DNA of 64,000 nucleotides from Macrostomum lignano (GCA_002269645.1 NIVC01000424.1:361501-425500), one strand, 5' to 3'. Counted from the first letter of the stretch, positions 37,242 through 64,000 are shown. Notes: generated by a model not told the origin, from the letters alone. Program-made: numbers and translations.

Positions 37242-38759
37242 ATGGCACAGGCCCTGCAACTCGCGGCACCAGACGCCTTTGACCTCGAAGGCGATCCTCT
37301 GACAAGAGCTCAGCGATGGAAAACCTGGACGCGAAGGTTCAACAGCTACATACACGCAGCTGGCATCACAGATGCGACACAGCTGCTGGAGCTCTTAGTT
37401 TACACTGCGGGCGAGAAGCTGGAAGACTTCATGGACGATAACGGCGTCAAGAAAGGAGAGTCTGCGGAGGAGCTCATCAAAGAGTTGCAGGGTATCTTCG
37501 ACCAAAAGAACAGCGTTGTCTTCCTCAGGTACCAGTTTGAAATATGCCGGCAGGAGGAAGGAGAGTCAATTGAGGCCTGGTATCATCGGCTACGCAAGGC
37601 TGCGGACCAATGCACATTCGGCGAACTCCGAGACTCGCTCATCAGGGACAAGATCGTGGCTCATTACCGGTCCGAGAGGATCAGGAGGGAACTCCTGCAG
37701 CTCAACGATGTCTCCTTAGACGACGTTTTGAAGCGAATCCGAGCGAGGGAGGCAGCGGAGCAGCAGGCCCAGGCCATGGAGATCGGCGCCGCAGCCGACA
37801 CGGGCCATCCTTCCGCTTCGAATGTGGCGGCGCTGCGTCCACCTCGTAACCGACCATCCCATACAACCAGGCCGGCTGCCGCGGCAAGAGACAGCGGCAT
37901 CAACTGCGATCGCTGCGGGCGACCAGGACATCAGACGTGCGAGGCAGCCCGTAACAAGGCGTGTCGACGCTGCGGCAAGATGGGTCATTTCGCTTGGGCG
38001 TGTCGAGGAGCAGCTAAAGTCCCTCTGAGGACCGTTGACGAACCGCAGGAGGAGGCTCCGCCGGGTCGAGTCGAATATCTGCAAGACGACCCCGTCGAGC
38101 ACGAGCTATTCACCCTGAGGAACTGCGGCTCAGCTTGGACGCCTGCGACAATTAATGGGCTCAAGACAAAGGTGCTCATCGACAGCGGCGCGGCCTGCAA
38201 CATCATCGACAGGGCGGCCTACGACAGGATGCCGCAAAAAGCCGCGCTGCAGCCCGCCAGCGACAAGGTCTACCCATACAGAAGCCAAGAGCCGCTGAGA
38301 TTGCTGGGCAAGGCAGACCTGCAAGTCAGCGTGTTCGAGATCCACGAGACACTACCGTTCTTGGTGCTCGACGGTGAGGGCGCTTGCATCATTGGCCGGA
38401 GAAGCGCTGAAAGACTTCAGATTCTGCGAGTCGGCCCGGAGAACAAGGTGGCATACCAGCTGCGTCCGTCTCCCGAGGTCTCGCTAGACAGCATGCTAAC
38501 AGGGATCCCAAAGGACGTCCTACATGCGCCGGGGGCACCGGCCCTGCACGAACTCCTAACGGAGAACGCACTAGTCTTCAGCGGAATCGGCAGGCTCAAA
38601 AACTATGCCGCCCGCATCTTCCTGGAGGAGGGAGCCAGGCCGGTCTGTCATCCCCATCAAGGGTGCCAATACATCTCGCACAGGCAGTCGACGCCGAGCT
38701 GCAGTGCCTCGAGGACCAAGGCATCATCGAGCCGGTGGAAGGCCCCTGTCCGTGGGTAG
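37242..38759 (+). CDS. gag: Gag (tandem zinc knuckles) plus aspartic protease
   Basis: CDRCGRPGHQTC...CRRCGKMGHFAWAC; protease LIDSGA. Confidence 0.9.
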   Translation: MAQALQLAAPDAFDLEGDPLTRAQRWKTWTRRFNSYIHAAGITDATQLLELLVYTAGEKLEDFMDDNGVKKGESAEELIKELQGIFDQKNSVVFLRYQFEICRQEEGESIEAWYHRLRKAADQCTFGELRDSLIRDKIVAHYRSERIRRELLQLNDVSLDDVLKRIRAREAAEQQAQAMEIGAAADTGHPSASNVAALRPPRNRPSHTTRPAAAARDSGINCDRCGRPGHQTCEAARNKACRRCGKMGHFAWACRGAAKVPLRTVDEPQEEAPPGRVEYLQDDPVEHELFTLRNCGSAWTPATINGLKTKVLIDSGAACNIIDRAAYDRMPQKAALQPASDKVYPYRSQEPLRLLGKADLQVSVFEIHETLPFLVLDGEGACIIGRRSAERLQILRVGPENKVAYQLRPSPEVSLDSMLTGIPKDVLHAPGAPALHELLTENALVFSGIGRLKNYAARIFLEEGARPVCHPHQGCQYISHRQSTPSCSASRTKASSSRWKAPVRG

Positions 38760-48783: not shown

Positions 48784-49231
48784 TTACCTTCTTAACTTAA
48801 AAATGTTGGCTATTGCGTCAGAAAAGACAACACGATTTGTGCGACCAAAACTTGACAGCCGATCGAAAACCGGCCTGCTCTGAAATTGTTCGCAGATTGA
48901 TAAAACTGACCGACTTGAACTATCTCTGTCCGTGAGACAGTCTGGTCCGAGCTCGTTCACCAGCCACTCGAGTGCTGAGCTGCTCACTTTATTGCATGCA
49001 GCACAGTGCACTGCACTCTTGTTTTGCCTTCCTCTCAGCTTGAAACACTCGACTCCATTCATCTTCTCTTTGATGAACTGCATTGATTCCGCCTTCTGGA
49101 ACTGAGCCGCAATGTGGATGACTGTGTTATTGTCTGCATCTCTGTCCGTGAAACAACCTCGTCCGAGCTCGTTCACCAGCCACTTAAGTGCTGAGCTGCT
49201 CACAGCATTGAAAGCAGCACAGTGCACTGCA
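48784..49231 (-). pseudogene. Ankyrin-repeat coding exon, 3' part, interrupted by the Polinton insertion
   Basis: Two similar units: AVHCAA.N.VSSSAL.WLVNELG..C.TDRD and NNTVIHIAAQ (ankyrin-like). The frame is cut at 49232 by the AGTAGT terminus. Confidence 0.7.
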
Positions 49232-49334
49232 AGTAGTATACGTTTTTTTGACACAAAGCCGATTTCCTTATGGCGAAATACATAGTAAGTACAGGCCCAA
49301 AAAAATGGCAGAGTCTGAAATTTGCCGTGCACGC
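49232..49334. repeat. Left terminal inverted repeat of the Polinton
   Basis: AGTAGTATACGTTTTTTTGACACAAAGCCGATTTCC...GTGCACGC. Confidence 0.93.
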
Positions 49335-49561
49335 AAACTAGCTTTTACGCAATGAATTAACCAATTAGCTGAATCACTTTTACGCAAACACCTGTCTATC
49401 CACCTAAATTCTATCCGCAATGAATGCAGCTAATTACAAGCCCAACCAAAATACACAAAGCTTATTTCGCGTATAACTTAACACATTTAAATTCTTCTTT
49501 TCAAGCAGTATTGTATATTTCAACTAGATCCAAACACAATTTGACGCACAAATTAGCGAGT

Positions 49562-50125
49562 TTACAAATATTGAGGCAGCACTCGAAAAACAAAATTGCG
49601 TAATTTAGCATACAAGTATCGAAACGAACCAGTGCGAATTATATTCCGTTTAAAAACGCTTCGAATAAAACACTCTAGGTTTTCTCTGGTAGTCAACTTA
49701 TGAAAAATATAAAAAATTACCCAAAATCCACAACTTCCACTCTGTGGGTCTTGGATAGCAAAGCGACTATAACACCAATTTTTCGAATTTCCACATTCTT
49801 TTCCTAGCCATTTTGCTATTCTTGGCAATGGTACTAGACCAAGAGAATCAAAATATTCACCAAGTCGTTTGCTACCGCGACCTGCTGGATGACCATAAAC
49901 CCAAACGCATACCCAATGTTTTCCGGGCAGGTTGGAGACGTCAGTATTAACGATAAAAAAATAGTTTTTACCGTCTAAAGGTAAGCGTCTAAGTCCACCA
50001 ACAAAGTTTTGAGGAAAAACACCAAGACATACAACATTTAAAAAATGTGCGCACAATTTCGATACAACATTGCGAAGGAAGCGATCTGTTACACCACGAT
50101 CTAGGATAGAATCAATTACTTCCAT
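49562..50125 (-). CDS. Adenain-like maturation cysteine protease
   Basis: IVNTD...GKHW (His), YFDSLG (Asp), IQ....SCG (Gln/Cys); ATG overlaps the MCP stop. Confidence 0.92.
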   Translation of the reverse strand: MEVIDSILDRGVTDRFLRNVVSKLCAHFLNVVCLGVFPQNFVGGLRRLPLDGKNYFFIVNTDVSNLPGKHWVCVWVYGHPAGRGSKRLGEYFDSLGLVPLPRIAKWLGKECGNSKNWCYSRFAIQDPQSGSCGFWVIFYIFHKLTTRENLECFIRSVFKRNIIRTGSFRYLYAKLRNFVFRVLPQYL

Positions 50126-51438
50126 ACTGTGCCAGGAACAATGTCGCGAAGTTCAGTCAGTTGCAGTTGCTTGTCAAATATACCTCCAAATATGACGTTG
50201 TACACGGTACTAGTTGCAGCATTGAAGCGTAACTCTAGTTTTACATTTCCTTCCTTATACAGTTGCACTCCCCGTCCGACACCAGGTTCACTTCCAAGAC
50301 TGAATGCAAAAATTGAGTAACCATTGGCGTAATCCAGCATATTAAATCCAATATCTCGTCCCTGTAGATAGATTCCAAGCTGTTGTAGCAAAAAATTATA
50401 CTCTGTCACACAATCATCTCCAAAGTTTGTCTGCAGCGGACGCGATGGTACCGAGTCTCCATTCACAAACACACCAATGCTGCTCACATTTGCATGCTCA
50501 AAGTTGAACGGATTTGTGTCCATGCTTCCATTGAATGCCTTGTTGCTTACGATTGCCATCAATAAAAGCCGTGGTACCCCACTAGGAAACAAATTTTCAT
50601 GCGTATGGCTAGACGATCCTCGGGGTATAGTAAACGTACCAAGGCTTAGACTTCGGTGCGGATATAATGCATTGTGACTTTTAAGTCCATGAGCATGTGC
50701 ACTGATAACACTCGGCGAGGGTTGAACAAACCGCAATCGTAGTTCTGCACGCAAAAACTTGATCTCATAGTCTTTTAAAACCGCACCAGCTTCTAATGTT
50801 GACCCGCTCAGGACAAATTTACTTTTTGCCGGTATGAGCTTGATCCGTAGTGGTGTCTTTGATAGTAGATACCGAGGCTGACGAAACAAATCCAAGAATA
50901 ACGGCCCCGATACAGTGCACCGCCTATTGTTAGCAATGAGCGCCTGCCTCTTTGTTCGTCCATCGTTTTCACTTGTTGCATTCATTTTACCAGCTGTATC
51001 CTTGTAAAACCCCCACGGCAGTAAACCAGCCTTCTGAGCTGTATGTCCATATTCCAGTAATGTAAGAAGCATAGCCTTGTATGGATACATAAAACTACCA
51101 CCTTCAACTACAGTATCGCCAATAGTAAATTGAACGTCCTCAAACAATGTTCCAATAACCAAATTATTCAAACAAACAAAATTTTTCGTTGCATCTATAG
51201 GTTCACCTTCACTATCACTAACGCTGAAGCATACCGTGAGCACAGTTTCTTGTAGATCCAAATACAAATCGCCTGCAGGCACAACTTCAAATTCGATAGG
51301 TGATCCTTTTGTAATACCATGTTGCGGTTGAATGTTAGTATATCGATTATCCAAAACACTAAACTGAACAGGACTTTGATCAAATAGCGACAATTCACTT
51401 TTAAGAGCAGCAATATCAGGTCCAAGCAAATGATTCAT
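50116..51438 (-). CDS. Major capsid protein (double jelly-roll, Polinton type)
   Basis: KSELSLF...PIEFEV...YLDLQET, YPYKAML.TLL.Y, NPFNFEH, GNVKLELRF: typical Maverick MCP motifs; ~440 aa. Confidence 0.9.
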   Translation of the reverse strand: MNHLLGPDIAALKSELSLFDQSPVQFSVLDNRYTNIQPQHGITKGSPIEFEVVPAGDLYLDLQETVLTVCFSVSDSEGEPIDATKNFVCLNNLVIGTLFEDVQFTIGDTVVEGGSFMYPYKAMLLTLLEYGHTAQKAGLLPWGFYKDTAGKMNATSENDGRTKRQALIANNRRCTVSGPLFLDLFRQPRYLLSKTPLRIKLIPAKSKFVLSGSTLEAGAVLKDYEIKFLRAELRLRFVQPSPSVISAHAHGLKSHNALYPHRSLSLGTFTIPRGSSSHTHENLFPSGVPRLLLMAIVSNKAFNGSMDTNPFNFEHANVSSIGVFVNGDSVPSRPLQTNFGDDCVTEYNFLLQQLGIYLQGRDIGFNMLDYANGYSIFAFSLGSEPGVGRGVQLYKEGNVKLELRFNAATSTVYNVIFGGIFDKQLQLTELRDIVPGTVWK

Positions 51439-51439
51439 G

Positions 51440-51898
51440 CTACTTTTCAAACAGACTAAAAAGTTTCTTGCTTGCAGTAGCAGTTCGACGTTTTCCTATA
51501 CCACCGGTCTTCTTGCGTTTTCTTTTGTTCACGCGTCCCTTTCCACACTGTCTTGTTCGTCGTTTCTTTTGCCGTTTCTTCTTTCCTAAGCTTATAGCCA
51601 CTCCACTGGTTCTTTTCCTTCGCTTTGGTCTCGAAACTGCAGTTGTATTAAACATCTCTTCGCTCGATTCTGTGTCCAAGTGACGCTTCCGACCCATACC
51701 AATTTTTGCTGTCGCACTTTTCAAATACTCCAGACCACGATCCAAGAAATCTTTCTTTGCGTTGCGTAGTACAGGATACACCAATCTGTCCGCCAAATTT
51801 GACAAAAAACCGTAACCTTCGTAAACAGGAATGCCATATCCACCTCCACCTTCAGCAGATCTATTCGGACCAGAATAAAAAGCAAAAATAGGATCCAT
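51440..51898 (-). CDS. Small Lys/Arg-rich core-like protein
   Basis: GGGG.G.PVY.G.G motif, amphipathic segment, highly basic C-terminus; lies between INT and MCP as in other Mavericks. Confidence 0.65.
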   Translation of the reverse strand: MDPIFAFYSGPNRSAEGGGGYGIPVYEGYGFLSNLADRLVYPVLRNAKKDFLDRGLEYLKSATAKIGMGRKRHLDTESSEEMFNTTAVSRPKRRKRTSGVAISLGKKKRQKKRRTRQCGKGRVNKRKRKKTGGIGKRRTATASKKLFSLFEK

Positions 51899-51939
51899 TT
51901 CAACAGTCTTCTCTTCGTCATGCAATCCCAATTCATGTG

Positions 51940-53100
51940 TTACTTATACACTTTAGAAAATAGTTTAGCAGTCTTTGCGTCAAGATCATTTTCGTTTAAC
52001 CACTGACTTCTTGAGATTGGCATACCTTTCCATTTTACTAGATACAGACGACTTCCATTTTTCGCTCGATCAGTTTCAATAACTTTTTCAATTTCATTAG
52101 GTGTTTCATCTGTCTCGTTTACCAACATTAGTTCCGCTTGGTTAAACCTTCCTTTCAGCACTTCAAATCCATCTTCAGGGTCCACTAATTCGTACATTGG
52201 CGGGTCTGTCAAGTGTACACGATGAATGCGATATTTTGAATTACTCCAAGTCGTAGTGTATCCTTTTTCAAATGTTCCTCGACGTCGTGTAATTCTAACC
52301 CAATCACCAACTTTAAATTTATTCTCATTCTTTTTAGTGTACGACTTCGCAAACATTTTGTCCCACAAAATTCCTTGTAAATGCGGGTCTGTCTCTACCC
52401 GTTTTGGTGTTTCTCCACTCAAGGATCGATGAGGACTAGAGTTGAAATTATCTTCCAATTGCGGTAAAATGTCAAACCATCGAGGTAAATTTTTTGCTCG
52501 AAAGTATCGTAATAGACGTTCCTTTAACGAGCGGATAAATCGTTCAGCCATGCTTGCCTTGTAATTGCTTTGGCTAACAAAAAATCGAACTCCTTCCTGT
52601 TTCAGCATTTGACGTGTAGCTCTTCCGAGAAACTCCATACCAGCATCACCTTGTAAATAAACAGGCTTAAAACCACTTCGAAAAATCTCTAGTAATACTT
52701 GACTAACTTCTGAAGGCTTCTTTGTACGCAATGGTCTTAGTCGTACAACTCTAGTAAAACAGTCGATAAGAACAAGTATGTAACGATAACCTCGATTTTC
52801 CGTCTTGTATTGAGGTAAATCTGCCAAATCGATTTGAAACTGAAACTTTGCAACTGGTGGCACACTAATTTTTGGAGTTGGAAAGTTTCGTCGTGTTTTT
52901 CGAAATAAATGATGCTCATTTGTTGATCGCACCCAATTATCAACTTCGCGCTTTGCAACTTTGTTCGTAATCTGTGGAAACTTTTTACGTACTTCACGAA
53001 CAAGTATAGTCTTGTTACCACTAAATGAAGTAGGCCTGTTCAAGTTAAAAAAAGCATCCGTCAAAAATTCTTCAATTTCCTTACGCACTCGCTTCATCAT
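51940..53100 (-). CDS. Retroviral-like (c-)integrase with C-terminal chromodomain
   Basis: DDE triad QIDLAD, GDAGMEF, AERFIR; chromodomain EIEKVI...YLVKWKG.P.S.SQW.....L. Confidence 0.95.
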   Translation of the reverse strand: MMKRVRKEIEEFLTDAFFNLNRPTSFSGNKTILVREVRKKFPQITNKVAKREVDNWVRSTNEHHLFRKTRRNFPTPKISVPPVAKFQFQIDLADLPQYKTENRGYRYILVLIDCFTRVVRLRPLRTKKPSEVSQVLLEIFRSGFKPVYLQGDAGMEFLGRATRQMLKQEGVRFFVSQSNYKASMAERFIRSLKERLLRYFRAKNLPRWFDILPQLEDNFNSSPHRSLSGETPKRVETDPHLQGILWDKMFAKSYTKKNENKFKVGDWVRITRRRGTFEKGYTTTWSNSKYRIHRVHLTDPPMYELVDPEDGFEVLKGRFNQAELMLVNETDETPNEIEKVIETDRAKNGSRLYLVKWKGMPISRSQWLNENDLDAKTAKLFSKVYK

Positions 53101-53269
53101 CAGTTAGATTGATGCTAGTCGTTTGACAGTTGCAACAAAAGAACGAAGCCTCGATCGAATCTCCGTCAGTATCCTCGTTGTGCTCCTTTCCCAGAAACGG
53201 CACACATTCAGATTTTATGCAAAAAAACTCACAGAGACGAATCAAAAGTTTTTGGAAGATAGATGACAT
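53081..53269 (-). CDS. Small Cys-rich ORF overlapping the integrase start
   Basis: ATG-initiated 62 aa with CCNC; packed like the neighbouring viral genes. Confidence 0.45.
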   Translation of the reverse strand: MSSIFQKLLIRLCEFFCIKSECVPFLGKEHNEDTDGDSIEASFFCCNCQTTSINLTDDEASA

Positions 53270-53381
53270 GGTTTGTCTTATTAAACTATATATTTTTCAT
53301 AAACAAAAAATTAACCTTTTTAAAAAGCTTATAGTGCTCGAATCAATTTTGTTAAAACGTAATCTGTAATTTTAAAACAAC

Positions 53382-54071
53382 TTAATTCAGTGTTTGATAA
53401 TTTTCAAACAGACTAAGATCCTCCTTTGCAACAGTTTTTGGAGCAGACATTAGCTCGTTTCGTACATGACGCCCGATTTGGTTTGCTGCGATTCCACGTT
53501 TTCGAAGAAAGTCTAAAAATGTTTTTAGTCCACTAGGCGGTTGAGTCTCGTGTCGCTTAAGCGGTCTGTCTCGAACAACATATTCCATGAGATCTTGTAT
53601 CTCGGCATCAGTCAAATTAGCCAGCATTGGTTCTGCATTCTTGTCCATGTCCGAAAATAGGTTTTGAGCGAGAGCTTCGAAACGTGGTAAAAAAACTTTA
53701 GGAATTTCCCTTGATTCGCTGGCATATGAACTTCTTACAGTAGTCCCTTTGCGAACAAGTGACAGATTGTCCTCGTCTCCAGTGCGATAGACTTTGCGCA
53801 ATTTTAAAAGTTTGTCTTCCAATCTGCTTCGTTTCAATTGAGCTGTGTAATTTGGCTCCTTTTCCATTTCCTTGTCCAAGTTATCCATTTGGTCTCTCAT
53901 TTCCACCATATTTTTTGCCAGAGCATCTTGCGGTGCGTCTAAAACTTCAGTTTTTCGAGGTGTCTCAGCAGTTGGTGACGATCCTTGCTCTGCACCTTGA
54001 CATGCAGATTGATACACAGATTCAGGTACTAGATACATTCGTTGAAAACTACTACTCTCGTTAGTTCGCAT
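53382..54071 (-). CDS. Uncharacterised Polinton protein (229 aa)
   Basis: N-terminal RMYLVPE motif seen in Maverick accessory ORFs; intact ATG-stop ORF. Confidence 0.7.
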   Translation of the reverse strand: MRTNESSSFQRMYLVPESVYQSACQGAEQGSSPTAETPRKTEVLDAPQDALAKNMVEMRDQMDNLDKEMEKEPNYTAQLKRSRLEDKLLKLRKVYRTGDEDNLSLVRKGTTVRSSYASESREIPKVFLPRFEALAQNLFSDMDKNAEPMLANLTDAEIQDLMEYVVRDRPLKRHETQPPSGLKTFLDFLRKRGIAANQIGRHVRNELMSAPKTVAKEDLSLFENYQTLN

Positions 54072-54081
54072 TATATTCCTA

Positions 54082-54510
54082 CTACTTTCGTTGAATTGAT
54101 CGTATTAAATTCGCTGCTCCCGCGGCGGTACCAACTACTCCAGACGTTATCCCAAGCGCAGTGCTTATAGCAGGTAGAGCGGCAATAATTGGAGCCAAAA
54201 AAGGTAAAAATCCTCCGTGTTGGACAAGTATTTTCCTTTTTGCAGTAATTGGAGTCTTCTGTTCCAAAAGCTGGCGTATATATCTGCGATGCTTCTCAAG
54301 TCGTCTTTTGTTACAGTTACTAATTTTAATACGTCCACTAATAATATTAAACAGAAAGTCTACTAGACATCGTATCTCCGACTCTGAAAGTGTTTGTAAA
54401 AAACTTTTTCTCTGCTTTGGATGCTTTAGCCGATAAACAATTTGTAGTAAAAAAGCACACTGACACAATGAGCGAGCATTTTGTTTTCCTTTTTCTGTTA
54501 GTTCGCTCAT
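54082..54510 (-). CDS. Conserved Polinton small protein with QHGGFL amphipathic/hydrophobic tail
   Basis: EIRCL..FLFNI..G.I.IS...KRRL.KHR..IR.L...KRKILVQHGGFLPFLAPII is a recurrent Maverick ORF type. Confidence 0.8.
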   Translation of the reverse strand: MSELTEKGKQNARSLCQCAFLLQIVYRLKHPKQRKSFLQTLSESEIRCLVDFLFNIISGRIKISNCNKRRLEKHRRYIRQLLEQKTPITAKRKILVQHGGFLPFLAPIIAALPAISTALGITSGVVGTAAGAANLIRSIQRK

Positions 54511-54566
54511 TCTTACAAAACAAATTCACAAAATTTTCTATTACACAATTAATCTTTGCTTATAAA

Positions 54567-55556
54567 TTAGTCCGACCTATGTTTAAAATGCAGTACGACA
54601 ACAACGTGTGCTCCCGGATCAAAATTAAACGGTTTTCCGCGCTGGTCCGATAGTCGAATCGAAATCTCGTGAATTTGTTGTCGATTTGTTTTCAAGTAGT
54701 AGGGTGTTTGCAATGCACTGCTATCGCGTATAAGTTCTCCGTTTTTCTTTTGTTGGAGTTCCACAACTCGAAGCAACGGTACTGATGTACTTCCCACTGC
54801 TTGATACTCGATTATATCTGTGTAACAGTACATGTAAACCGTTTTACTAGGCATCGGAGAAGGTAGCACAGCATCCAAGTAGGTTTTGTTAATGCGCCAA
54901 ACACGATTTCTCAACCAATATTGGTGTACTTTGATGTACACTTCTCCTTCCGTTTTTCGAAGATAGTCTCCATGCGAAACAAGTCGTATAGCTTCACCAG
55001 GCGATAGAACACAATAAAAAACATAATAGTTCTCAGGTACTAGCGCTAGAGTATTGTCGAGACTTTTTATCAAATCCAAGTATGAACCATCCGGTGGTTG
55101 TACACTACCAGCGGCAGGTTTTGATAATTTTTCCGAGACAAGTCCAGAAAGTTTCTTCCAAGAGTCAAATTTGAAAGCGTCCATAAATGTAACTGGTAGT
55201 TCTAATCCAATAGTTTTTTCGCCTGAATTTCGTAAAAGCCAGGCAAATTTTTCATCTGTACCAGACGGTTGCCAGGAAACGTAAGCATCCAAGTCTGCCT
55301 CTGCCCAAACACGACCCCAATAGTTTTTCTTTAATCGTATTATTGAGTCAATGTCCGCAAAATATGGAACTTCAAATCGACGCTCACGATGAGCATTTGG
55401 CGTCGTAATTGCTCCATGGCACAGTAATTCAACTAGTGCAACCTCGAAGAATCCGTTCAATAAATTTATTGGTTCAGTTAGTCGCACTCGAAATTCATTA
55501 GGCGAGTTGGTTTCGTAACTGATATCGTTTGACGGCAAAAAAACGTAAAAACTCAT
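54567..55556 (-). CDS. Minor capsid protein (penton, single jelly-roll)
   Basis: FYVFLPSN...N....FRVRL..PI.L...EVALVE and Y.YTDIIEYQ.VG....PLLRVV...I.EISIRL.D..G.P..F motifs. Confidence 0.85.
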   Translation of the reverse strand: MSFYVFLPSNDISYETNSPNEFRVRLTEPINLLNGFFEVALVELLCHGAITTPNAHRERRFEVPYFADIDSIIRLKKNYWGRVWAEADLDAYVSWQPSGTDEKFAWLLRNSGEKTIGLELPVTFMDAFKFDSWKKLSGLVSEKLSKPAAGSVQPPDGSYLDLIKSLDNTLALVPENYYVFYCVLSPGEAIRLVSHGDYLRKTEGEVYIKVHQYWLRNRVWRINKTYLDAVLPSPMPSKTVYMYCYTDIIEYQAVGSTSVPLLRVVELQQKKNGELIRDSSALQTPYYLKTNRQQIHEISIRLSDQRGKPFNFDPGAHVVVVLHFKHRSD

Positions 55557-55613
55557 TTTGAAATAAAACACAAACTAATATTGACAACAGTTTATAATTT
55601 GCTTATAATAATA

Positions 55614-56303
55614 TTACACAAACTTTGCATCACATTCACGAGTATAGACAACTTGTTCATCACCAGAAAATATTCCTGTTCTCAATCGTAAAAAATCTGG
55701 TGTCACTTGCCGCAGGTCAATGAATAAATATGAAAAAGGTTTGTTATTTGTTGCGTCTTCATACACATTCACTAGAAACCTACTATTACGCGGATACATT
55801 TGTCGACCGAGATGTTCAACTGTGGTTCGATCGCGCACACTACGAGTTAGACAAATATAACTAGCTGATAAACTTCGCATGCGTGCTTCTGGATCAGACT
55901 TGTTAAAAAGACCTTGACAAAGGTACAGACAAGTCAAAGGGATATGATGCGCATGCTTTGTAAACATACTAGTAAATTCTGGCAACTTAGCAATCTCGCT
56001 TTGCAAGTCGTCAACAACAACCAAATCGTGTGGTAAAAAACGATTAATCATCTGTGGTGTGAATTCGGGTACAAAAACAATAGGGTCAAGACCGCTTTTT
56101 TGCCAGCATGTTCTAATTCGTTGTTGATCGTCTGGTTTCAAACTTGATCCATGGCACCAAACAAGACGGCACGGTTTTTTATCAAATAATTCTTTTCGTT
56201 CAGTCAACAAACGCAACGTCCATTCAGTTTTACCCGAGTTTGAAGGTCCAGCAATAATAAATGTAGAATCGTGAGCTAGTTGCATATTGTATGGCTGCTG
56301 CAT
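55614..56303 (-). CDS. FtsK/HerA (A32-like) genome-packaging ATPase
   Basis: Walker A GPSNSGKT, Walker B VVVDDL, F.K..HH and LCQGLF motifs. Confidence 0.93.
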   Translation of the reverse strand: MQQPYNMQLAHDSTFIIAGPSNSGKTEWTLRLLTERKELFDKKPCRLVWCHGSSLKPDDQQRIRTCWQKSGLDPIVFVPEFTPQMINRFLPHDLVVVDDLQSEIAKLPEFTSMFTKHAHHIPLTCLYLCQGLFNKSDPEARMRSLSASYICLTRSVRDRTTVEHLGRQMYPRNSRFLVNVYEDATNNKPFSYLFIDLRQVTPDFLRLRTGIFSGDEQVVYTRECDAKFV

Positions 56304-56305
56304 TT

Positions 56306-56749
56306 TCAAGCACCAAAGCGTTGCTTAACTTGCATAACCTTGGTAACCAACTTCGCAGCTAGTTTTTCTTTCCAACCAGTAGACGGATCGTGGGCAATCT
56401 CTCGTGCACCAGATTCTAATAGCTTATCAGCTTTTAACCTCTCTTGCACGTCAGAATTTTTATCATAGGCCACGTCGTGAAGCATGCACAAATTGTCAAG
56501 CCGATTAATTCCTCGTTGTCCTTTTGCTAGCCTAGCTTGCAGTTGCGTACCTGGACCACAAAACTGATATCCGCCGGGTAAATGTGCTTCAAATGGTAAA
56601 TGATTAATTAACCAATTTACGACACCATAACCTTGTTGCTTTTTATTAATCTTTCTAATAGATTTCTTCTTTTTACGAATGCTCTTCTTTTTCTTTTTAA
56701 AACCTCGATCTTTCGCTGGAGACATTTTTACAACATATATTTTAGGCAT
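56306..56749 (-). CDS. Parvovirus-type phospholipase A2 domain protein with Lys-rich N-terminus
   Basis: Ca-binding loop HLPGGYQFCGPG and catalytic LDNLCMLHDVAY, then R..AD..L. Confidence 0.88.
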   Translation of the reverse strand: MPKIYVVKMSPAKDRGFKKKKKSIRKKKKSIRKINKKQQGYGVVNWLINHLPFEAHLPGGYQFCGPGTQLQARLAKGQRGINRLDNLCMLHDVAYDKNSDVQERLKADKLLESGAREIAHDPSTGWKEKLAAKLVTKVMQVKQRFGA

Positions 56750-56840
56750 AAATTTTTAAAATTGCTTATAGTATTTACAAAGCTCTCGCATAGTGCACCA
56801 ATCACCAAAGAAAAAAATCAGTTTATTATTATTATTATAC

Positions 56841-57323
56841 TTATTGGCCAGTGCTGCCAAAGCCGCCAAAGCCGCGCCGCTTGGTCGGCGGCTCAATCAT
56901 CCGAATCGAATTGTCTGCTTCAGTCACATAGACTGAAGCAAGCACGGCCTGCTCCAGAACCAGTTGTGCAATACTGAGCCCGGCATAGTACTCAAAGTCT
57001 TCCGGACTGTAATTAAACAAGACTATACAGATTTCACCAGTATAGTCGGGGTCGATTACGCCACCGCCAACAAATAAGCTGTGCAGAGCCATGCTGGAAC
57101 GTCCCGCTATCCTGCCATAGGTACCAGGCGGTAAGCGAATTTTGAGTCCGGTTCGCACACTCCGGGACTCGTAGGCCGGAATGGTACCATCGACGCCAGC
57201 GCAAAGATCATACCCGATCGACCCGACAGTTTTTCGGGTCGGAATCGTTGCCGAATCGTATAGACGTTCAACTAAAAGCTTACGATCAGTTAGTTGTTGT
57301 TGCTGCTGCTGCTCGGGATTCAT
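56841..57323 (-). CDS. dut: Trimeric dUTPase
   Basis: All five motifs: GYDL, RSS, GVIDPDYTGEI, IAQL, RGFGGFGSTG; N-terminal poly-Q. Confidence 0.93.
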   Translation of the reverse strand: MNPEQQQQQQLTDRKLLVERLYDSATIPTRKTVGSIGYDLCAGVDGTIPAYESRSVRTGLKIRLPPGTYGRIAGRSSMALHSLFVGGGVIDPDYTGEICIVLFNYSPEDFEYYAGLSIAQLVLEQAVLASVYVTEADNSIRMIEPPTKRRGFGGFGSTGQ

Positions 57324-57599
57324 GTCGATTCTTGTAGCTGAAAGTTTAAAAAAAAGTTTTTTTTCTTGAAACATGAACGATAGCACTACATTTACGTCTA
57401 CTACAAACACAAGCTTAGTCTTGAGAATCTAACTATAAAAAATATACTTTTTCAAATAATTAAACACAAAAAAGTGCTAAAATTATAATTTAAACGAATG
57501 CCGGTATCATTTATTTATTGTAAATAATGATCAATGAAAAAATTAATGATGGGTTACAGTCTTCTATAGCATGCTATTACTTTGTACAACAAAAGAGAT

Positions 57600-57946
57600 C
57601 AGAGCATATTGTTAATTAATTAGCCAAGTGCCAGTGTCCAAAGGGTAGCGAATTAATTGAACTTGTCCAGGATCGCTTCGTATCGAAGAAGCTTAGTGCA
57701 AGTTTTCTTTGTTGCATCAAAAAAAACTTTCTGTTTTCGAGAACGAATGGACTGCATGCGCGAAAACACAAGTTGTCGCTTGTGTAAGACTCTTAAATAG
57801 TCTTGATGCTTTAAACTGCTCTGTGCGGCTTTAGAAGCAGTACTGCTCCAGCTTTGCGACCGATTGAGACTGGAACTTTAAACGATTGCTGCTTAACCAG
57901 ACCGGACCGGACTGGACCGGACCGGACTGGACCGGACTCCCCGCGC

Positions 57947-57978
<32 letters not shown>

Positions 57979-58716
57979 ACCACCACCACCGCCGCCACCA
58001 CCACCACCACCACCGCCGCCACCACCACCACTGCCGCCGCCCGCCCCCACACCACCGTGGGACGTATTTGTTGACAGTGTGCTTGCATGGCTTTTGCGAT
58101 AAACGCAGAGCATCAAGTCTAGCTGCTCGATTGCTCTATATTGCCAATTACTACCTCGAGATTGAAAATTGTCAATTTTTATTAACAACTGATTAATAAC
58201 GCGTGCGAACCAGTCATTGTAGGCCTCGGGAGATAACAGCATGTCACTGTTTGCAATCGTCTCATCAAATGATATTGTCGCAATGTTGGTATTAAAATAG
58301 ACCGAAATGATCTCTTCGCTGCTCGAGCCATCGTTGTCGTCTGCTGCTGTTTTCGGTCGAAATAGTGTCACTTTCAAGTGAAAGCAGACTCTTATTAATA
58401 AACTGGGTGAGCCAATTTTTTCCAATATTTTAAATATTGGTTCTCTTAAAGACGCAATCAACTCGCCAGGAAGTAACTCGCCAGAGCTGTTGCCTTGTTG
58501 TTCAAGAGTGGGAGTAAATTCGACAAAATTTACCCGACCACGATGAGCTGACTCGCGCAAAGCGATGGACCACCCATCTGGTGGGTTTTCGATCAGGTTT
58601 TGCAGCGATCCGGTCAGTAATCGTTGCGGTGAAAAACAAGCACCATGCGAGTGAGCATGCAGCTCGGCTTGATTACTGAACTTTTTTCTGCAGATTTGGC
58701 ATTGTGCACGCGGCAT
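57600..58716 (-). pseudogene. Relic of the pPolB N-terminal region (C2H2 finger ORF 58716-57811 plus decayed tail); no polymerase core
   Basis: CQIC...H...H finger; IDNFQSRGSNW...I..L.L; SFKVP.SI...AV and, in the same frame after two TAA stops, DNLCF. These are motifs of the region that precedes pPolB in Mavericks. Confidence 0.6.
57890..58055. repeat. (GCC/ACC)n triplet and ACCGG repeats encoding poly-Gly and GPVRS
   Basis: Direct. Confidence 0.93.
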
Positions 58717-58937
58717 TGTGTGCACCTAGCTCGACAACGAGCGTATCGAGCATAATATTAATAGATGATCCGGTTTGTCATTTGCGGCTGTAAGAAAAAT
58801 GATGATTTGGTTAGTTATAGGTATAGCTGACACGTTTACTATTAGAGAAAACAATTGGTAAATAAAAAAAAAGACAAAATGTTTGTAAAAGAATGCATCG
58901 CAACTGCGATTTGACAGCAATTGTTTACTTGTTAAGT

Positions 58938-59495
58938 TTAGTTATTAACAGAGATTAAAAAATCCTTGACATGGTTAAGAATATTATTCAATTCATGAGT
59001 GTTTTGAACGCCCATAATAACAAACTTTTTCGAAAAAAATATGTTACAAAAAAGCCTTGGTTTTGATGCTGATCTAACAGAAACTGCTTGTGGGAAATTT
59101 TCTGCATCGTATCCAACCAGATAATTCGAATAGTAGCCTGCATATCTTTTTAGACTAGAGAAACCGAATTTTGGCCAAAGATGACCAATAAAGCCGACAT
59201 AGGTACTGCTCTGAATTTTTACTGAATCAAAATCTACACAATTAATAGTGTCGTTGATAAATCGTAAAACTGAGACTATCTGAGAATTTGATTTACAGCC
59301 ATATATAGTTAGTTTTCCTGCTGGATAAAGTTGGATTTTAGCATTTGAATAAATTGTCTTTAGCATTGTTGGTCGGCTTAGGAATAGTTTGCAAAACCGG
59401 TTTCTGGTCTGTAGCTTCTGTTTGGTCTGCTTTAAATCAAATTTTTCAAACGGGTGCAGCTTCAGACTCGCAGTAACTATTAATAGGACAAGTCG
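58938..59495 (-). CDS. TATA-binding-protein-like protein (185-aa open frame after a splice acceptor; first in-frame ATG 59366)
   Basis: Two TBP-like half-repeats: LIVTASL...FDLK...IQLYPAGKLTIYGCKS and VKIQS...YDAENFP...KPRLFCNIFFSKKFVIMG. Confidence 0.75.
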   Translation of the reverse strand, partial: RLVLLIVTASLKLHPFEKFDLKQTKQKLQTRNRFCKLFLSRPTMLKTIYSNAKIQLYPAGKLTIYGCKSNSQIVSVLRFINDTINCVDFDSVKIQSSTYVGFIGHLWPKFGFSSLKRYAGYYSNYLVGYDAENFPQAVSVRSASKPRLFCNIFFSKKFVIMGVQNTHELNNILNHVKDFLISVNN

Positions 59496-59705
59496 CTAAA
59501 ACGGAAAATAAATAATAAGAAAAGTTAAACATGACTATACTATCGTAAATTCTAATATTAAATTACAAAACCTGGTTAGCGTACAAGGAGTAGCAAAAAA
59601 TGTTTTGAGCTTTTCCCTAAAAAATAATATTTCCCTAGCCAAAAATTTGATAAATATAGTGGAATAAGTTAGTTAAAACTTGGATAAAATTAGTCAAAAA
59701 TTTTG

Positions 59706-60904
59706 TTACTCATCATCAGAGCTGCTGTACGAGTCGTCCGATGAAGACACGCTAGCTGTAGTAGCGTCCGCAGCAGCACGCTTTAAAAATGCTGTCTCCT
59801 TGGACGCTACCCTGGTTCCAGAGGCAGGTGTACTCACCAAGATCTTTGCTGGTGGAGCCTCCACCCAGTCTGTGCCATCTGCACCAGCTTCGGCAGAATT
59901 GTTTTGCTGTTTTGCACCGCTGCGTTTTCGAACTTGCTTTTTAGGCGGCGGTTCAATAGAGGCTGGCGCTGCATTCGATGTAGTCGACTTCTTCGATACG
60001 GTGGTGGTAGACCGACGCTTTGCAGGTGACTTGGCAGGTGTCACCTGGCTTGAATTCTGCAGGCTTTGTTCATTTGCTTCTTCTTGCTCACAGGTAGATG
60101 TTGGGGACGGACTCCTGCTTCTAATTGCTGACTTGGTCGCGGGTAGGTGTGCAAGCACTCCCTTGAACATGTCGAGGCGCTGCAACATGTTGTCGGAAGA
60201 TTCTATGAGTGTCAGAGAGCGCACAGCGAATGTAATGCGCCAGACGAGGCAGCCTTTTGGACAATACAAGCTCGTTGCTTGCACTGTCATTTGGTAGGTA
60301 CCGCTGACACCTTTGAAATCGGAAATGGACACCTCCTTCCCGTGTGGATGATCGTTGCTGATCCTGATTGTGGCACAAGGGTAAGCAGGCTTTATAGCCA
60401 GCCATTGTTGAGGCACAAACTCGAGGACGTCGTTAGCATGCTGATGAGCTGGTTTTGTTAGTCGTGCCAAGGGTCGAGCATCTTGAATCTCGTTCAACTT
60501 GACCGATAGACCTTTTTCGACTTGACTGCAAAACATTATATAAATTATGAATATAGTTTCCTAAAATTAATTGTATAAATTTAATATGGTGCTCACCGGA
60601 GAGAGTGGAAGAGTTCCTTATCGCAGCTGTCTGGATGAAATTGGACACTTACTGCGTCGCGAGAGTCGTGTCTGCAAGACGGATGATCGAGCTCTGGCCT
60701 TTCTGCGATTCCACGAAAAAGCTCCATTGGAGCCTTGGTTTGCAATATAATTGGGTACCATTTTGTACACTCGATTGATGGTTTCCACGCAATAGATCGA
60801 AACTGGCAGGACGAACCAGTCGTGGTTGTAGACTGCTCTCCAACGTAAAAAATCGGACTCGAGTCGGAGCGTACAATTGACTCCGTCTTGATGCAAGCTG
60901 CCAT
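59706..60904 (-). CDS. Spliced gene (exons 60904-60597, 60525-59706; 375 aa), putative OB-fold ssDNA-binding protein with acidic tail
   Basis: A 71-bp GTGAG...TTTTGCAG intron joins two ORFs in phase 2. PIILQT..., ELF..LRQVE, and the strand pattern TVQATSLYC...WRITFAVRSL resemble viral T7-gp2.5-like SSBs; C-terminus SSSDDE. Confidence 0.6.
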
Positions 60905-60982
60905 GTCTTACAAGCAATTGAATATAGTATTTCTTTTGCTGTAATGATTGAGCTCATGAAAAATTGACCATTTCGGGTCTTG

Positions 60983-60990
60983 TATTTATA
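60983..60990 (-). promoter_or_regulatory. Candidate TATA box (TATAAATA) upstream of the SSB-like gene
   Basis: Consensus match ~80 nt upstream of ATG 60904. Confidence 0.4.
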
Positions 60991-61589
60991 GCAAGCATTG
61001 CATGCTGTTTGTGAACTAGTAAACAAATTTAATTGTTGCGTGCTGATTAAGACATTGTTGCGTGCCAAAGGTGGCATAAGTTTCTAGGGTGGGTTGCATG
61101 ATTAGGTCTAATTTTACGCAAATGTAGGTTGATATTTTATAAAATAAAATTAATGAATCTTAGGCACACTAGTTATAAATTTGCAAGAGTAACACGATGG
61201 CAAGCGTTTAATAAGAAGACTGCTGGTTGCTGCTTCATTAGATTGGTTTTGTTCTCAAGTAGAATGTAATTAAAATATTTTGCGACTTGAAAAATTAGCA
61301 ATCTTGGATTTTAGAGTAAAAATAAGCTGCACGCGGTGCTATGAAATTAATTTATTGAAAGTTTTGCTTGCATGTTGGAATTTTTTAGCTCGCACGGTGA
61401 CAAGAGATTGCTTGAGTAACCTATATATAGAGTGTTACTTTTCAAACAGAAAAAGGTATAGTTGTAACTCAGCTTTTGCAGTCCTATATTGAGCAGAAGC
61501 TATATAGAGTTACACTATCATGCTGCGACGCGCAGCTTGTTGGGACTATAATGACTGCCGCTGCTATAACCGCATGCAGTCAGTGCAGT

Positions 61590-62335
61590 TGACACACAAA
61601 TGCTGTTTGGACTAAGCTAAATTACTGTGTTGAGACAGTTAAGCTGGACCACGGCTAAATCACTATTGATACGGTTAATTGCTACTAGACCCATGGCTAA
61701 ATCACTGTACGTTGAGACGGTTAAGCTGGACCACGACTAAATCGCTGTACGTTGAGACGGTGGTTAAGCTGGACCATGGTTATAAAACTGGACGGGTGGT
61801 TAAGCTGGACGACTACAGCTAAAATTACTGTTGAGTCAGTTATGCTAGACCACAGCAGCCAAATCACAGTTGAGGTAAAGCTGACCATAGCTAATTCTCA
61901 CTGTTGAGACGGGTGCTGCTGCTTGGCTCACAGCTAAATAACTGGACAGTTAAGCTAATCGGACTACAGCTAAATCCCTGTTGAGACAGTTGCCTGGACC
62001 ACAGCTAAAATCACTGTTGAGGCAGTTAAGTCTGGACAACAGCTAAAATTACTGTTGAGACAGTTAAGCCTTGACTATAGCTAAATCATCGTTGAGGTAG
62101 TTAAGCCTGGACTATAGCTAAATCACTGTTGATGCAGTTTTAAGCTAGACCACAGCTAAATCATACTGTGAGGCAAAAAAGCCGGACCACAGCTAAAAAC
62201 TGTTGAGGCAAAAGCTGGACCACAGCTAAATCATACTGTTGAGGCAAAAGCTGGACCACAGCTAAATCATACTGTTGAGGCAAAAGCTGGACCACAGCTA
62301 AATCATACTGTTGAGGCAAAAGCCAGACCATGGCT
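61590..62335. repeat. ~36-bp tandem array (GCTGGACCACAGCTAAATCATACTGTTGAGGCAAAA) inside the Polinton
   Basis: About 20 degenerate copies, most homogeneous at 62200-62330. Confidence 0.88.
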
Positions 62336-62587
62336 AAAGAAACGTATGAAAAAAAATTATTTGCATGGATTAATAATTTTTGTTTAATGATGACTGTACA
62401 AGATATTGACTTTATATTGAATTAAATAATTTCAATGAATGGCGAATAAAATTGAAAGAATTTTTTAGAATAATGAATTTATAGAGATTATATTATTGAT
62501 TACAGACTTGTTTGATATATACTAAAAGAGCAATTACTTGGACACATTGCTGGCAAAATTTTATGAAGAGTTAGAAAAAATGTCTTT

Positions 62588-63448
62588 TTAAGATAGGTCC
62601 CAATATTCAAATACTTGAGTTGTATTACAGGTCTTTGCTAATTCTACTTGGTAGAAGCCTGTGCTCATTTGAGAGACTTTTACAGACTTGATGTCCTTCT
62701 GTACAATAATTGGCGAGTTTAGCAGCGGTTGAACTTGGGTAGAAATAGCAATTGATGATGATGGTGTTTCAGTTGCTGTCGTTGGTTTGGTACTTGTAGG
62801 CTTACTGCAAGTTTGCTTTGTTGGGTCATTGTAGCTGGTTGGTGATGGTGGTGGTGGTGCATACTGCAGTTGGTCAGTTGGTCGTGGGTTCGATTGCTGC
62901 CTAATTGACTGAATAACATCAGTTCTTGTGTAAATGCGATCTAGCTCAGTTGTCTGTCTCTCGACATGAATCGAGGTTACTCTGGCGAGAGATGTAGAAT
63001 ATGATGCTCTTGCAGCAGAATTGGATGTGGTGGTGTCGTGGCAAATGCGTTTGCACTGATCTGGAGGTGGCCGCGTGAAGAAACCATTCTTGAATGCTAT
63101 AATAATGGATAAGATGAGGGAAATTTGGTATAGGTGCATGTATACAATGTATATAGAAACTGAACTAGCAGAGAATCAGTCTAAACAGAAACCGAACTAG
63201 CAGACAATCAATCTAGAAATTCTGAACTAGCAGAGTATTAGTCTAAACAGAAACCGAACTAGCAGAAATCAATCTAGAGACTGAACAAACAGAGGATCGG
63301 TCTAAACAGAAACCGAACTAACAATCAATCTAGAAACTAAACTATAGCGAACAGTCAATCTAAAAAAGAAAACTGAACTAGAGTAGGTGATTATCTTACC
63401 TTGTTTAACATAGCGCTCGGCCAATTCCTGCTGACGTGATCGCTTCAT
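62588..63448 (-). CDS. Probable spliced gene (exons 63448-63400, 63096-62588; 185 aa), Thr/Pro-rich, unknown function
   Basis: ATG...CAA G|GTAAGA donor and TTCCCTCATCTTATCCATTATTATAG| acceptor are both phase 1, giving MKRSRQQELAERYVKQAFKNGFFTRPPP. Confidence 0.55.
63155..63385. repeat. ~50-bp degenerate repeat (AAACAGAAACCGAACTAGCAGA...ATCAATCTAGA) within the predicted intron
   Basis: About 4 copies. Confidence 0.75.
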
Positions 63449-63903
63449 TTCACTTAAGATGTAAGTATAGTTGAACAAGTAGTATAATGTAAACTTGGTT
63501 TAAGTTATTTAATATTTTCTGTGTCAGTGTGTTCGTATATATATATATATAAAGAAGAAGCATGTTGACGCAGTTGTTGACATAGTATCTGTAAACCATC
63601 TGCTCAAGTTGGTGCAAAAATTCTATAGGCACTCAAGAATAGATCATTTACTATCTTTCTTCAAAAGGGTGATAATATTCACAAGTTTTCAATATTTCAA
63701 AAACACTTGAAATGTGTGAATAGCTTTGGAGTAAATTTGTCTTGAATGGAATCCTTTGAAGTGTGTTTGTGTCACCATTGCTAGAATCGGTTACTTGTAT
63801 TTTGGACAGGTGGATATGCAATTCGTCTGAATAATCACGTTGCGTAAAAGATATTTAGCGTGCACTTGGAATTTCAGACTGCGTGCACATGGAATTTCAG
63901 ACT

Positions 63904-64000
63904 GCGTGCACATGAAATTTCGGACTCTGCCATTTTTTTGGGCCTGTACTTACTATGTATTTCGCCATAAGGAAATCGGCTTTGTGTCAAAAAAACGTAT
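63904..64000. repeat. Right terminal inverted repeat of the Polinton (last 6 nt outside window)
   Basis: Reverse complement of 49238-49334; differs only in the innermost ~20 nt. Confidence 0.93.

Follow-up and report, generated by a model that had tools for sequence, protein, structure and literature searches.

How does a Polinton/Maverick-like element that lacks most of its polymerase gene multiply in a flatworm genome, and how might its genes be switched on? The question is raised by a 64,000-nt stretch of Macrostomum lignano DNA (GCA_002269645.1 NIVC01000424.1:361501-425500; hereafter the window, which closes contig C424). The element occupies the stretch from 49232 to the last nucleotide of the window, its genes lying on the minus strand. 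An initial annotation, made from the sequence alone, took it for an endogenous virus of a polymerase-free lineage. We show that this copy is a non-autonomous internal-deletion derivative of a Polinton/Maverick lineage, and that the deletion form was inserted at many sites very recently. To the overall reading, in which the derivative is copied by a helper, its early unit is split by a spliced leader (SL) and its late module is driven by a TATA-binding protein (TBP) of its own, we give a probability of roughly 0.7.

An internal-deletion derivative of a Polinton/Maverick lineage

The left terminal inverted repeat (TIR) begins AGTAGT at 49232. Comparison of the ends gave inverted arms of 98 nt (49238-49335 and 63903-64000, 96% complementary) within a full TIR length of 104 bp, in agreement with the ~100-bp near-identical TIRs described initially. 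The contig stops 6 bp before the right terminus, and ACTACT had been predicted at 64001-64006. When the right terminus joined to the left-flank hexamer was used as a search pattern, one exact match was found, on contig C2693: there the terminus reads ...ACTACT and is followed by ACTGCA, the hexamer at window positions 49226-49231. The 6-bp target site duplication (TSD) is confirmed because the C2693 flank carries on the same 216-bp host repeat as the left side of the window. Both the AG...CT ends and the 6-bp TSD expected of a Polinton are present (C424, C2693), and the termini are of the type, (AGT)2//(ACT)2 or (AG)3, by which a passage of PMC8097293 defines Polintons/Mavericks. Between the TIRs lie the ~15 minus-strand open reading frames (ORFs) listed in the initial annotation, among them the rve integrase characteristic of the group.

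A search of the host genome with the major capsid protein (MCP) gave 97 matches, 17 of them full-length at 100% identity (rounded) and the remainder in groups at about 80, 75, 70, 66 and 30%. Stretches of 10 near-identical copies were fetched first and further ones later, and genes cut by the borders of a stretch were not scored as lesions. The sister copies that had been sought were found in two forms, deletion-type and undeleted. Alignments of the window with three undeleted sisters (C84, C1136 and C2373; 95.6-95.9% blastn identity) break at 57817, where the sisters have 3.16 kb more, and at 62347/62350, where they have 1.6 kb more. The 3.16 kb encodes the rest of a DNA polymerase B of the protein-primed type (pPolB), with exonuclease, EndoVII and polymerase regions (PF03175, PF02945 and pPolB motifs). 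PF03175 was over the cut-off in four of five pPolB frames scanned from sisters and families (E 2.5e-25 to 5.8e-12), and below it in the fifth, an N-terminal piece. The possibility that the deletion is an intron was rejected, the removed DNA having no GT-AG ends.

Related families (66-80% MCP identity) retain TBP, a single-stranded DNA-binding protein (SSB) and a pPolB frame of 1272-1478 aa, in the order SSB-TBP-(dNK)-pPolB-dUTPase-PLA2-ATPase-penton (dNK, deoxynucleoside kinase; PLA2, phospholipase A2). Because sisters and related families carry pPolB, the absence of a polymerase is a trait of the subfamily and not of the lineage. A passage of PMC5499653 makes protein-primed PolB part of the Polinton/Maverick definition; sister copies and families have it, and we file the window copy as a derivative rather than as an autonomous Polinton because it does not.

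Of 40 scored places matched by a 156-bp query that spans the junction, 30 aligned over its full length and 10 only up to the junction, and a 1-kb piece of the deleted DNA was found at 22 places (6 full-length at 98-100%). Insertions were counted as sites and not as contigs, some contigs joining the ends of different insertions. Of 20 hexamers flanking the termini of the loci fetched, 19 were present at both ends, 17 of them marking distinct deletion-type sites and 2 undeleted sites. The window differs by 0.10-0.18% from four deletion copies and by 3.2% from two undeleted copies, and the recent insertion claimed initially is borne out.

What remains of pPolB is the N-terminal third or less, already noted as a relic and identified here by alignment with sister pPolBs. 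It comprises a C2H2-like Cys/His finger, then a domain closed by a conserved GS[NG]W, and a glycine linker; the cut falls a few residues ahead of a conserved Cys in the next domain, and the sister pPolBs have a conserved Cys and His at the OTU position. A passage of PMC11071308 gives the pPolB order as terminal protein, vOTU protease, exonuclease and polymerase, and the terminal-protein link residue as a Ser or Tyr near Gly. From the sister alignment and this published order we infer that the terminal-protein domain survives and that the vOTU protease and the catalytic domains are lost, the domain after the cut being probably the vOTU. An Atlas search with the pPolB N-terminus gave no usable match.

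With 17 deletion sites vs. 2 undeleted ones, the deletion form most likely uses a helper polymerase. It is very probably copied in trans by the polymerase of undeleted sisters through the near-identical TIRs, with insertion carried out by either its own integrase or that of the helper. Undeleted sisters whose TIRs are near-identical to those of the window are present in the genome; over the fetched stretches their pPolB frames are long and open in two of three, the third being interrupted as assembled; and undeleted pPolB sequence, leader included, occurs in runs presumed to be RNA. These points argue against helper-free spread, in which host replication and repair enzymes would act with the element's own integrase, SSB and terminal-protein domain. 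The 17 to 2 ratio would also suit such spread, as would a second family in the genome, in which the TIRs enclose ~10.5 kb and neither of the two copies examined showed a pPolB, and the distance of 3.2% to the assembled undeleted copies, among which the exact parent was not found; we nevertheless consider it improbable. Redundancy of the assembly or of haplotypes could make few insertions look like many, since several sites are each carried by a pair of contigs (C2542/C3539, C4247/C4373) and chimeras of different copies occur among the contigs, but 17 different TSD hexamers, each at both ends and with different flanks, render this very improbable. The distinct autonomous lineage that never had or needed a polymerase, as the initial annotation proposed from a window copy without polymerase motifs, is refuted by the sister alignment, with its sharp shared junction and with pPolB in sisters and related families, and has a negligible chance of being correct.

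Several copies and families differ in ways that are recorded here for their own sake. Deletion-type copies C593 and C877 have duplications, of 2.3 kb at the right end and of 1.8 kb in the MCP region, respectively, either of which may be an assembly artefact. The dUTPase region (56832-57632), which adjoins the junction, is 10-14% off the undeleted sister (dS 0.66) vs. ~3% elsewhere, and probably represents a patch acquired by recombination, no donor for which was found. Deoxynucleoside kinase lies between TBP and pPolB in related families (L064, L067, L070, L076, L092), in one frame with TBP in C297; the window subfamily is without it. Near the right arm of the 66% family lie an LRAT-domain ORF (L084, 230-889) and the gene of a signal-anchor protein that weakly matches FkbM methyltransferase (L077, 1797-2984). 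In C4948, another element with a Pox_A32 ATPase and a double-jelly-roll-like capsid gene lies at the expected place of the TBP/SSB arm (L072, 1827-8858). The distant family, to which about 25 matches at 30% MCP identity belong, has ~10.5 kb between TIRs of 570-665 bp (C976, 136034-146601; C261, 112484-122657), genes for integrase, penton, MCP, protease and ATPase, no pPolB detected in either copy, an ORF of 131 aa with weak similarity to TBP (E 0.0016; hhalign 43%) and an ORF with what we take to be a Fic motif.

Spliced leader, TBP-like gene and TATAAG boxes

Four of the 24 listed sequencing runs were compared with the window, three presumed RNA (X17, X18 and X19) and one presumed DNA; contig depth in these runs cannot rank expression. 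Joints (CT..AC) of two GT-AG introns, in the SSB and the Thr/Pro-rich genes, were found in all three presumed-RNA runs and not in the presumed-DNA run, in accord with the introns and the spliced Thr/Pro-rich gene of the initial annotation. In run X19, an identical extra 22-23 nt stood at the AG acceptors ahead of dUTPase and pPolB. This leader motif has 58 exact genomic matches (control, 0), and 10 of 16 leader cluster sites fetched continue with G, GTAAG, one identical downstream sequence and a T-rich Sm-like site, as separate SL RNA genes with a GT donor do. The flatworm SL given in a passage of PMC8629364 is identical to it and ends in ATG. We show that the host SL is joined to at least two mRNAs of the element, those of dUTPase and pPolB. 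Loose ends at 57817 match the pPolB of undeleted sisters in the three presumed-RNA runs, and deletion-type dUTPase (86% identical to the undeleted allele) is covered by contigs with 1-2 differences. Both forms appear in these runs, DNA carry-over being possible for unspliced contigs, and the element is transcribed at least in part.

A search of Rfam with four leader loci, all of them leader-bearing sequences without the GTAAG donor, returned no SL family. Some genomic leader copies continue with GAACC and differing sequence and have a common upstream motif (L103, L104, L105, L113, L114, L118); they are possibly a mobile family carrying the leader. At the pPolB acceptor, an upstream ORF of 10 codons begins with the leader AUG and precedes the pPolB ATG (window 58779-58787), a possible brake on polymerase translation.

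The TBP-like gene announced in the right third scored over the Pfam cut-off, and its predicted structure (pLDDT 89) is a true TBP saddle fold of two repeats: the top 44 Foldseek PDB ranks were all TBP (best E 8.9e-10, TM 0.71), 35 of 37 entries matched in a profile search were TBP, and the BFVD structure list was headed by viral TBP-like proteins, including those of Nucleocytoviricota. Residues Y57, F134 and F153, candidate counterparts of the DNA-intercalating phenylalanines of TBP, are invariant in seven TBP-like sequences; the fourth intercalating-aromatic position is not conserved. A word-indexed search with the ORF gave no match, though a profile search found 136 proteins, among them 4 close ones (ENA and Logan contigs) and a group that is larger, more divergent and marked by an RPxM motif. 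In a quick tree search (131 rows), from which no donor is claimed, the RPxM clade joined the window TBP family at SH-aLRT 92 (profile match, 99.7%). No TBP relatives were found in the viral_contigs set with either alignment. A metagenome scan with 9 TBP sequences gave 12 loci, and in 7 of 8 examined (two near-duplicate pairs) a Polinton protease, MCP, penton or integrase gene adjoins TBP. By these gene neighbourhoods, TBP is a recurrent Polinton accessory gene, found also in metagenomic Polintons unrelated to this one.

The TBP ORF begins directly after a YAG acceptor at the same codon in 8/8 loci (11-16 of 17 positions pyrimidine). No in-frame ATG lies upstream in seven of the eight, the first internal Met is at codon 21-44 (codon 44 in the window), and the frame is in phase with the AUG of the leader. 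An SL-supplied AUG can start translation, as a passage of PMC9851317 reports for flatworm host genes. These sequence features suggest that the leader AUG probably gives TBP its start codon.

All 8 coding-strand TATAAG motifs of the element lie 40-153 nt ahead of an ORF of the structural module; the right arm has none. TATAAGC precedes the QHGG and penton genes in 7/7 loci of the lineage, which represent five independent families, and TTATAAGCAA is invariant ahead of the QHGG gene in all five. The families have 6, 4, 5, 3 and 5 copies of TATAAGC on the coding strand and 0 on the other, a bias matched by at most 1 of 300 shuffles in each. Ahead of SSB, TATAAA or TATATA was found 50-100 nt upstream in the five related loci checked. 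The C976/C261 family was considered as a TBP-less control for the box and dropped, having the weakly TBP-like 131-aa ORF; C261 has TATAAGC.

Proposed programme of expression and copying

On the preferred reading, host RNA polymerase II (Pol II) would use the TATAAA box ahead of SSB to transcribe the right arm as an early unit. The host SL would split this transcript, as seen for pPolB and dUTPase, and its terminal AUG would serve as the TBP start codon. Helper pPolB would copy deletion and undeleted forms from their shared TIRs, viral TBP would raise late transcription at the TATAAGC boxes of the structural module, and integrase would insert new copies with 6-bp TSDs. We consider it likely that the right arm forms one such early unit (SSB, TBP, pPolB and dUTPase), leader-split and with a leader-started TBP. 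That viral TBP acts on TATAAG(C) boxes as late promoters, as their sequence distribution may suggest, has an even chance; so has the analogy by which TBP would then switch on the structural module in the manner of herpesvirus TBP mimics. The full two-stage programme, with an SL-split early operon, a TBP dependent on the leader AUG, a private TATAAGC late promoter and a defective-interfering (DI)-like form that retains the terminal-protein domain and every structural gene and stands at ~8:1 over its helper, is put forward tentatively, its chance being below even.

Several observations weigh against this programme. The RNA status of the runs is a tool's guess, none being recorded as RNA, the leader was seen in only one of the three presumed-RNA runs, and contig counts overstate copy number. 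No leader was found at the TBP acceptor (59495) among the loose ends listed, 20 of 23, X17 and X18 contigs cross this acceptor unspliced, and in the C1680 family an in-frame ATG precedes it by 33 nt. Cis-splicing may instead supply the 5′ end of the TBP mRNA, all 8 loci having GTRAG donors at 259-619 nt upstream of the acceptor. As to the box, TATAAGC is not enriched in the whole window (8 seen vs. 9.2 expected), two families carry TATATAAG ahead of the early SSB gene, the 90 nt next to the starts of MCP, protease, ATPase and integrase showed no TATAAG as a shared motif, and the intended TBP-less control has a weakly TBP-like ORF.

Host TBP and Pol II might read all promoters, TATAAG being a TATA variant and viral TBP an accessory factor or a decoy (e.g., for TFIIB/TAFs). 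The motif is one base off TATAAA and, for four starts, stands 40-59 nt away, as is normal for a TATA box; the distant family of the same genome has TATAAATA ahead of structural genes; and C4948 has boxes, with no TBP detected in the fetched stretches, where the arm is apparently replaced by another element. In contrast, the G-C after TATAA is invariant across families with saturated synonymous sites, the element's own early gene uses TATAAA, and at 5 sites in metagenomic Polintons with a TBP (L123, L125, L127), TTAAGC or TATAAG lies 35-47 nt ahead of a structural gene. We regard exclusive use of host TBP as rather unlikely, and prefer late transcription directed by viral TBP.

Other features and relation to known systems

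The features are collected in Table 1. A Pfam scan of the window proteins gave matches over the cut-off for rve with chromodomain, PLA2, dUTPase, TBP and Adeno_PX, and none for the protease, MCP, penton or SSB ORFs. The assignments made initially hold for integrase and PLA2, and found no Pfam support for protease, MCP and penton. The left structural module is open, as claimed, with open capsid and integrase ORFs, and dN was below dS in all 15 segments compared with an undeleted sister (MCP: dN 0.002, dS 0.048). The protease is adenain-like on weak matches: its metagenomic homologues match Peptidase_C5/C48, mostly below the cut-off, and His, Asp, Gln and Cys are present, presumably in their usual motif roles. 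The MCP has 113 homologues, several with F54H12.2-like names, and its position is as in other Polintons; neither the window protein, nor its homologues, nor their profile gave a Pfam or PDB sequence match, and there was no phage match. Penton likewise had no Pfam or PDB sequence match. We infer MCP (putatively double jelly-roll) and penton (putatively single jelly-roll) from family and gene context; a passage of PMC4028283 equates PY with MCP and PX with penton. The ATPase is A32/FtsK-like through its homologues, 4 of 5 of which match Pox_A32 (1 over the cut-off, best E 6e-6); the window protein itself had no Pox_A32 match. Window and sister share a Met at 56725 in the PLA2 ORF. The tandem array reported in the right third was found, and the Thr/Pro-rich gene would encode 185 aa if it begins at 63448, its putative start, the frame having been checked.

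The SSB-like ORF first described is exon 2 of a two-exon gene. Its exon joint is present in all three presumed-RNA runs, its open frame spans 375 aa, and UniRef includes an identical protein of that length labelled Macrostomum lignano. The predicted structure (mean pLDDT 58, with a disordered tail) best matched, among 48,161 chains, CP312R of African swine fever virus (ASFV; Z 10.8, rmsd 4.6, 178 aligned) and then T7 gp2.5 (Z 5.2); BFVD matches were iridovirus P31K and giant-virus homologues. The profile had no PDB sequence match. The protein resembles CP312R and gp2.5 in structure and in its acidic tail, and differs from them in sequence (7-8% identity) and in a conserved intron that splits its gene.

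The insertion site (48922-49231) is the 216-bp host tandem repeat, with a depth of ~1000-2000 in the presumed-RNA runs vs. 10-30 for the element. At 37158-41239, the window has gag and pol ORFs of a long terminal repeat retrotransposon, which we take from their motifs to be Gypsy-like.

Table 1. Positions of the element's features in the window
Feature	Position	Strand	Basis or remark
TSD ACTGCA, left copy, 6 bp	49226..49231	+	right copy on C2693, same host tandem repeat
Left TIR, starts AGTAGT	49232..49335	+	inverted-repeat comparison
Maturation cysteine protease, 187 aa	49562..50125	-	ASFV S273R match, E 0.008
Putative major capsid protein, 440 aa	50116..51438	-	homologue names, gene context
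Basic K/R-rich putative core protein, 152 aa	51440..51898	-	kept in related families
TATAAG boxes, candidate late promoters	51590..56770 (+ coordinates 51591, 51943, 53328, 54164, 54559, 55602, 56765; also 50254)	-	motif search
rve integrase with chromodomain, 386 aa	51940..53100	-	PF00665 E 4.5e-8, PF00385 E 1e-6
Small Cys-containing ORF, 62 aa	53081..53269	-	ORF call; no Pfam family
Conserved ORF, 229 aa, no role assigned	53382..54071	-	homologues in related families and metagenomic Polintons
QHGGFL protein, adenovirus pX-like segment, 142 aa	54082..54510	-	PF05829 E 2.3e-6
Putative penton/minor capsid protein, 329 aa	54567..55556	-	conserved across families
Packaging ATPase, 229 aa	55614..56303	-	Walker A in sequence
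PLA2-domain protein	56306..56749	-	PF08398 E 3.4e-9
dUTPase, ATG 57323, behind trans-splice acceptor	56841..57337	-	PF00692 E 1.5e-29
dUTPase trans-splice acceptor	leader joined 57338/57337	-	leader loose end, run X19
Remaining pPolB N-terminus	57811..58716	-	alignment with sister pPolBs
pPolB-deletion junction, 3.16 kb removed	57817..57818	.	sister alignment, junction query
pPolB mRNA trans-splice acceptor	58787..58790, leader joined 58788/58787	-	leader loose end, run X19
Predicted TBP-fold protein, 185 codons	58938..59495	-	Pfam, fold, profile; directly after polypyrimidine+TAG acceptor
SSB gene, 375 aa	59706..60904	-	exon 1 60904-60597, intron 60596-60526 (GT-AG), exon 2 60525-59706
TATAAA box, candidate early promoter	60985..60990	-	upstream of SSB gene
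Tandem array, 36-40 nt unit	61616..62338	.	repeat search; 36-nt unit called
Second junction; undeleted sisters 1.6 kb longer	62347..62350	.	sister alignment
Thr/Pro-rich spliced gene	62588..63448	-	intron about 63097-63399; joint in 3 presumed-RNA runs
Right TIR, last 6 bp absent (contig end)	63903..64000	-	inverted-repeat comparison

The element shares with Polintons, Mavericks and adintoviruses (Polintoviricetes) the (AGT)2 termini, the 6-bp TSD, the rve integrase, ATPase, protease and capsid genes, the PLA2 and pX-like genes and, in sisters, a pfam03175-type pPolB. In contrast to them, the greater part of pPolB is absent from the window copy, the gene set of the lineage is enlarged by TBP, a CP312R-like SSB, dUTPase and often dNK, and introns and leader trans-splicing are present, intact vertebrate Mavericks being described as intronless. 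PLA2 points to the 'Alpha virion module' or group 2 type in passages of PMC8502044, 10.64898/2026.06.19.733378 and PMC8097293; of the traits that would mark an alpha adintovirus, an OTU+pfam03175 PolB and a PLA2X-type virion module that clusters with the Mayetiola reference, PLA2 and PF03175 are present.

For MELD viruses, which are Polinton-related, a TBP-like gene already bears the label 'TBP' in print (legends of PMC8502044 Fig. 5 and of 10.1101/697771 Fig. 5 and 6). Unlike the present case, these are legend labels from non-animal datasets, and the accompanying passages are without fold, promoter or start-codon analysis; one supplement file of PMC8502044 gave no TBP match. A passage of PMC12529657 describes ORF24 of Kaposi's sarcoma-associated herpesvirus, a TBP mimic that directs host Pol II to late promoters. 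The element's protein shares the viral TBP fold with ORF24 and with TBP-like proteins of Nucleocytoviricota, and its proposed role is that of ORF24; in contrast to ORF24, it would be a bare core of ~185 aa, with no known partner proteins and a putative role. Leader, acceptor type and in-frame AUG logic are those of flatworm SL-resolved operons, which in passages of PMC8629364 and PMC9851317 are known for host genes, and here occur in a virus-like element. A passage of 10.1101/2024.01.15.575659 deals with a different, repeat-mediated trans-splicing. The word 'TATA' was not found within PMC11071308, PMC10748475, PMC8097293, PMC11131425, 10.64898/2026.06.19.733378 and 10.1101/2025.04.19.649669, and no literature was found on Polinton TBP function, Polinton leader splicing or a Polinton of this host, figures and most subscription papers, among them the original Polinton/Maverick descriptions and Repbase, being outside the search. 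No virion has been observed for Maverick-Polintons, according to a passage of 10.64898/2026.06.19.733378.

The part that merits further attention is the regulatory anatomy (TBP, box and leader) of this Polinton derivative. This flatworm laboratory model offers young near-identical copies with open structural genes and spliced transcripts. As handles, the element provides a transcription-factor candidate of viral origin, a possible late promoter, mRNAs with defined 5′ ends and a helper paired with its defective form. If TBP needs the AUG of the leader, the element would be tied to hosts with such a leader; and if the proposed programme is true, many Polintons would turn out to share an undescribed, recurrent feature, late transcription directed by TBP.

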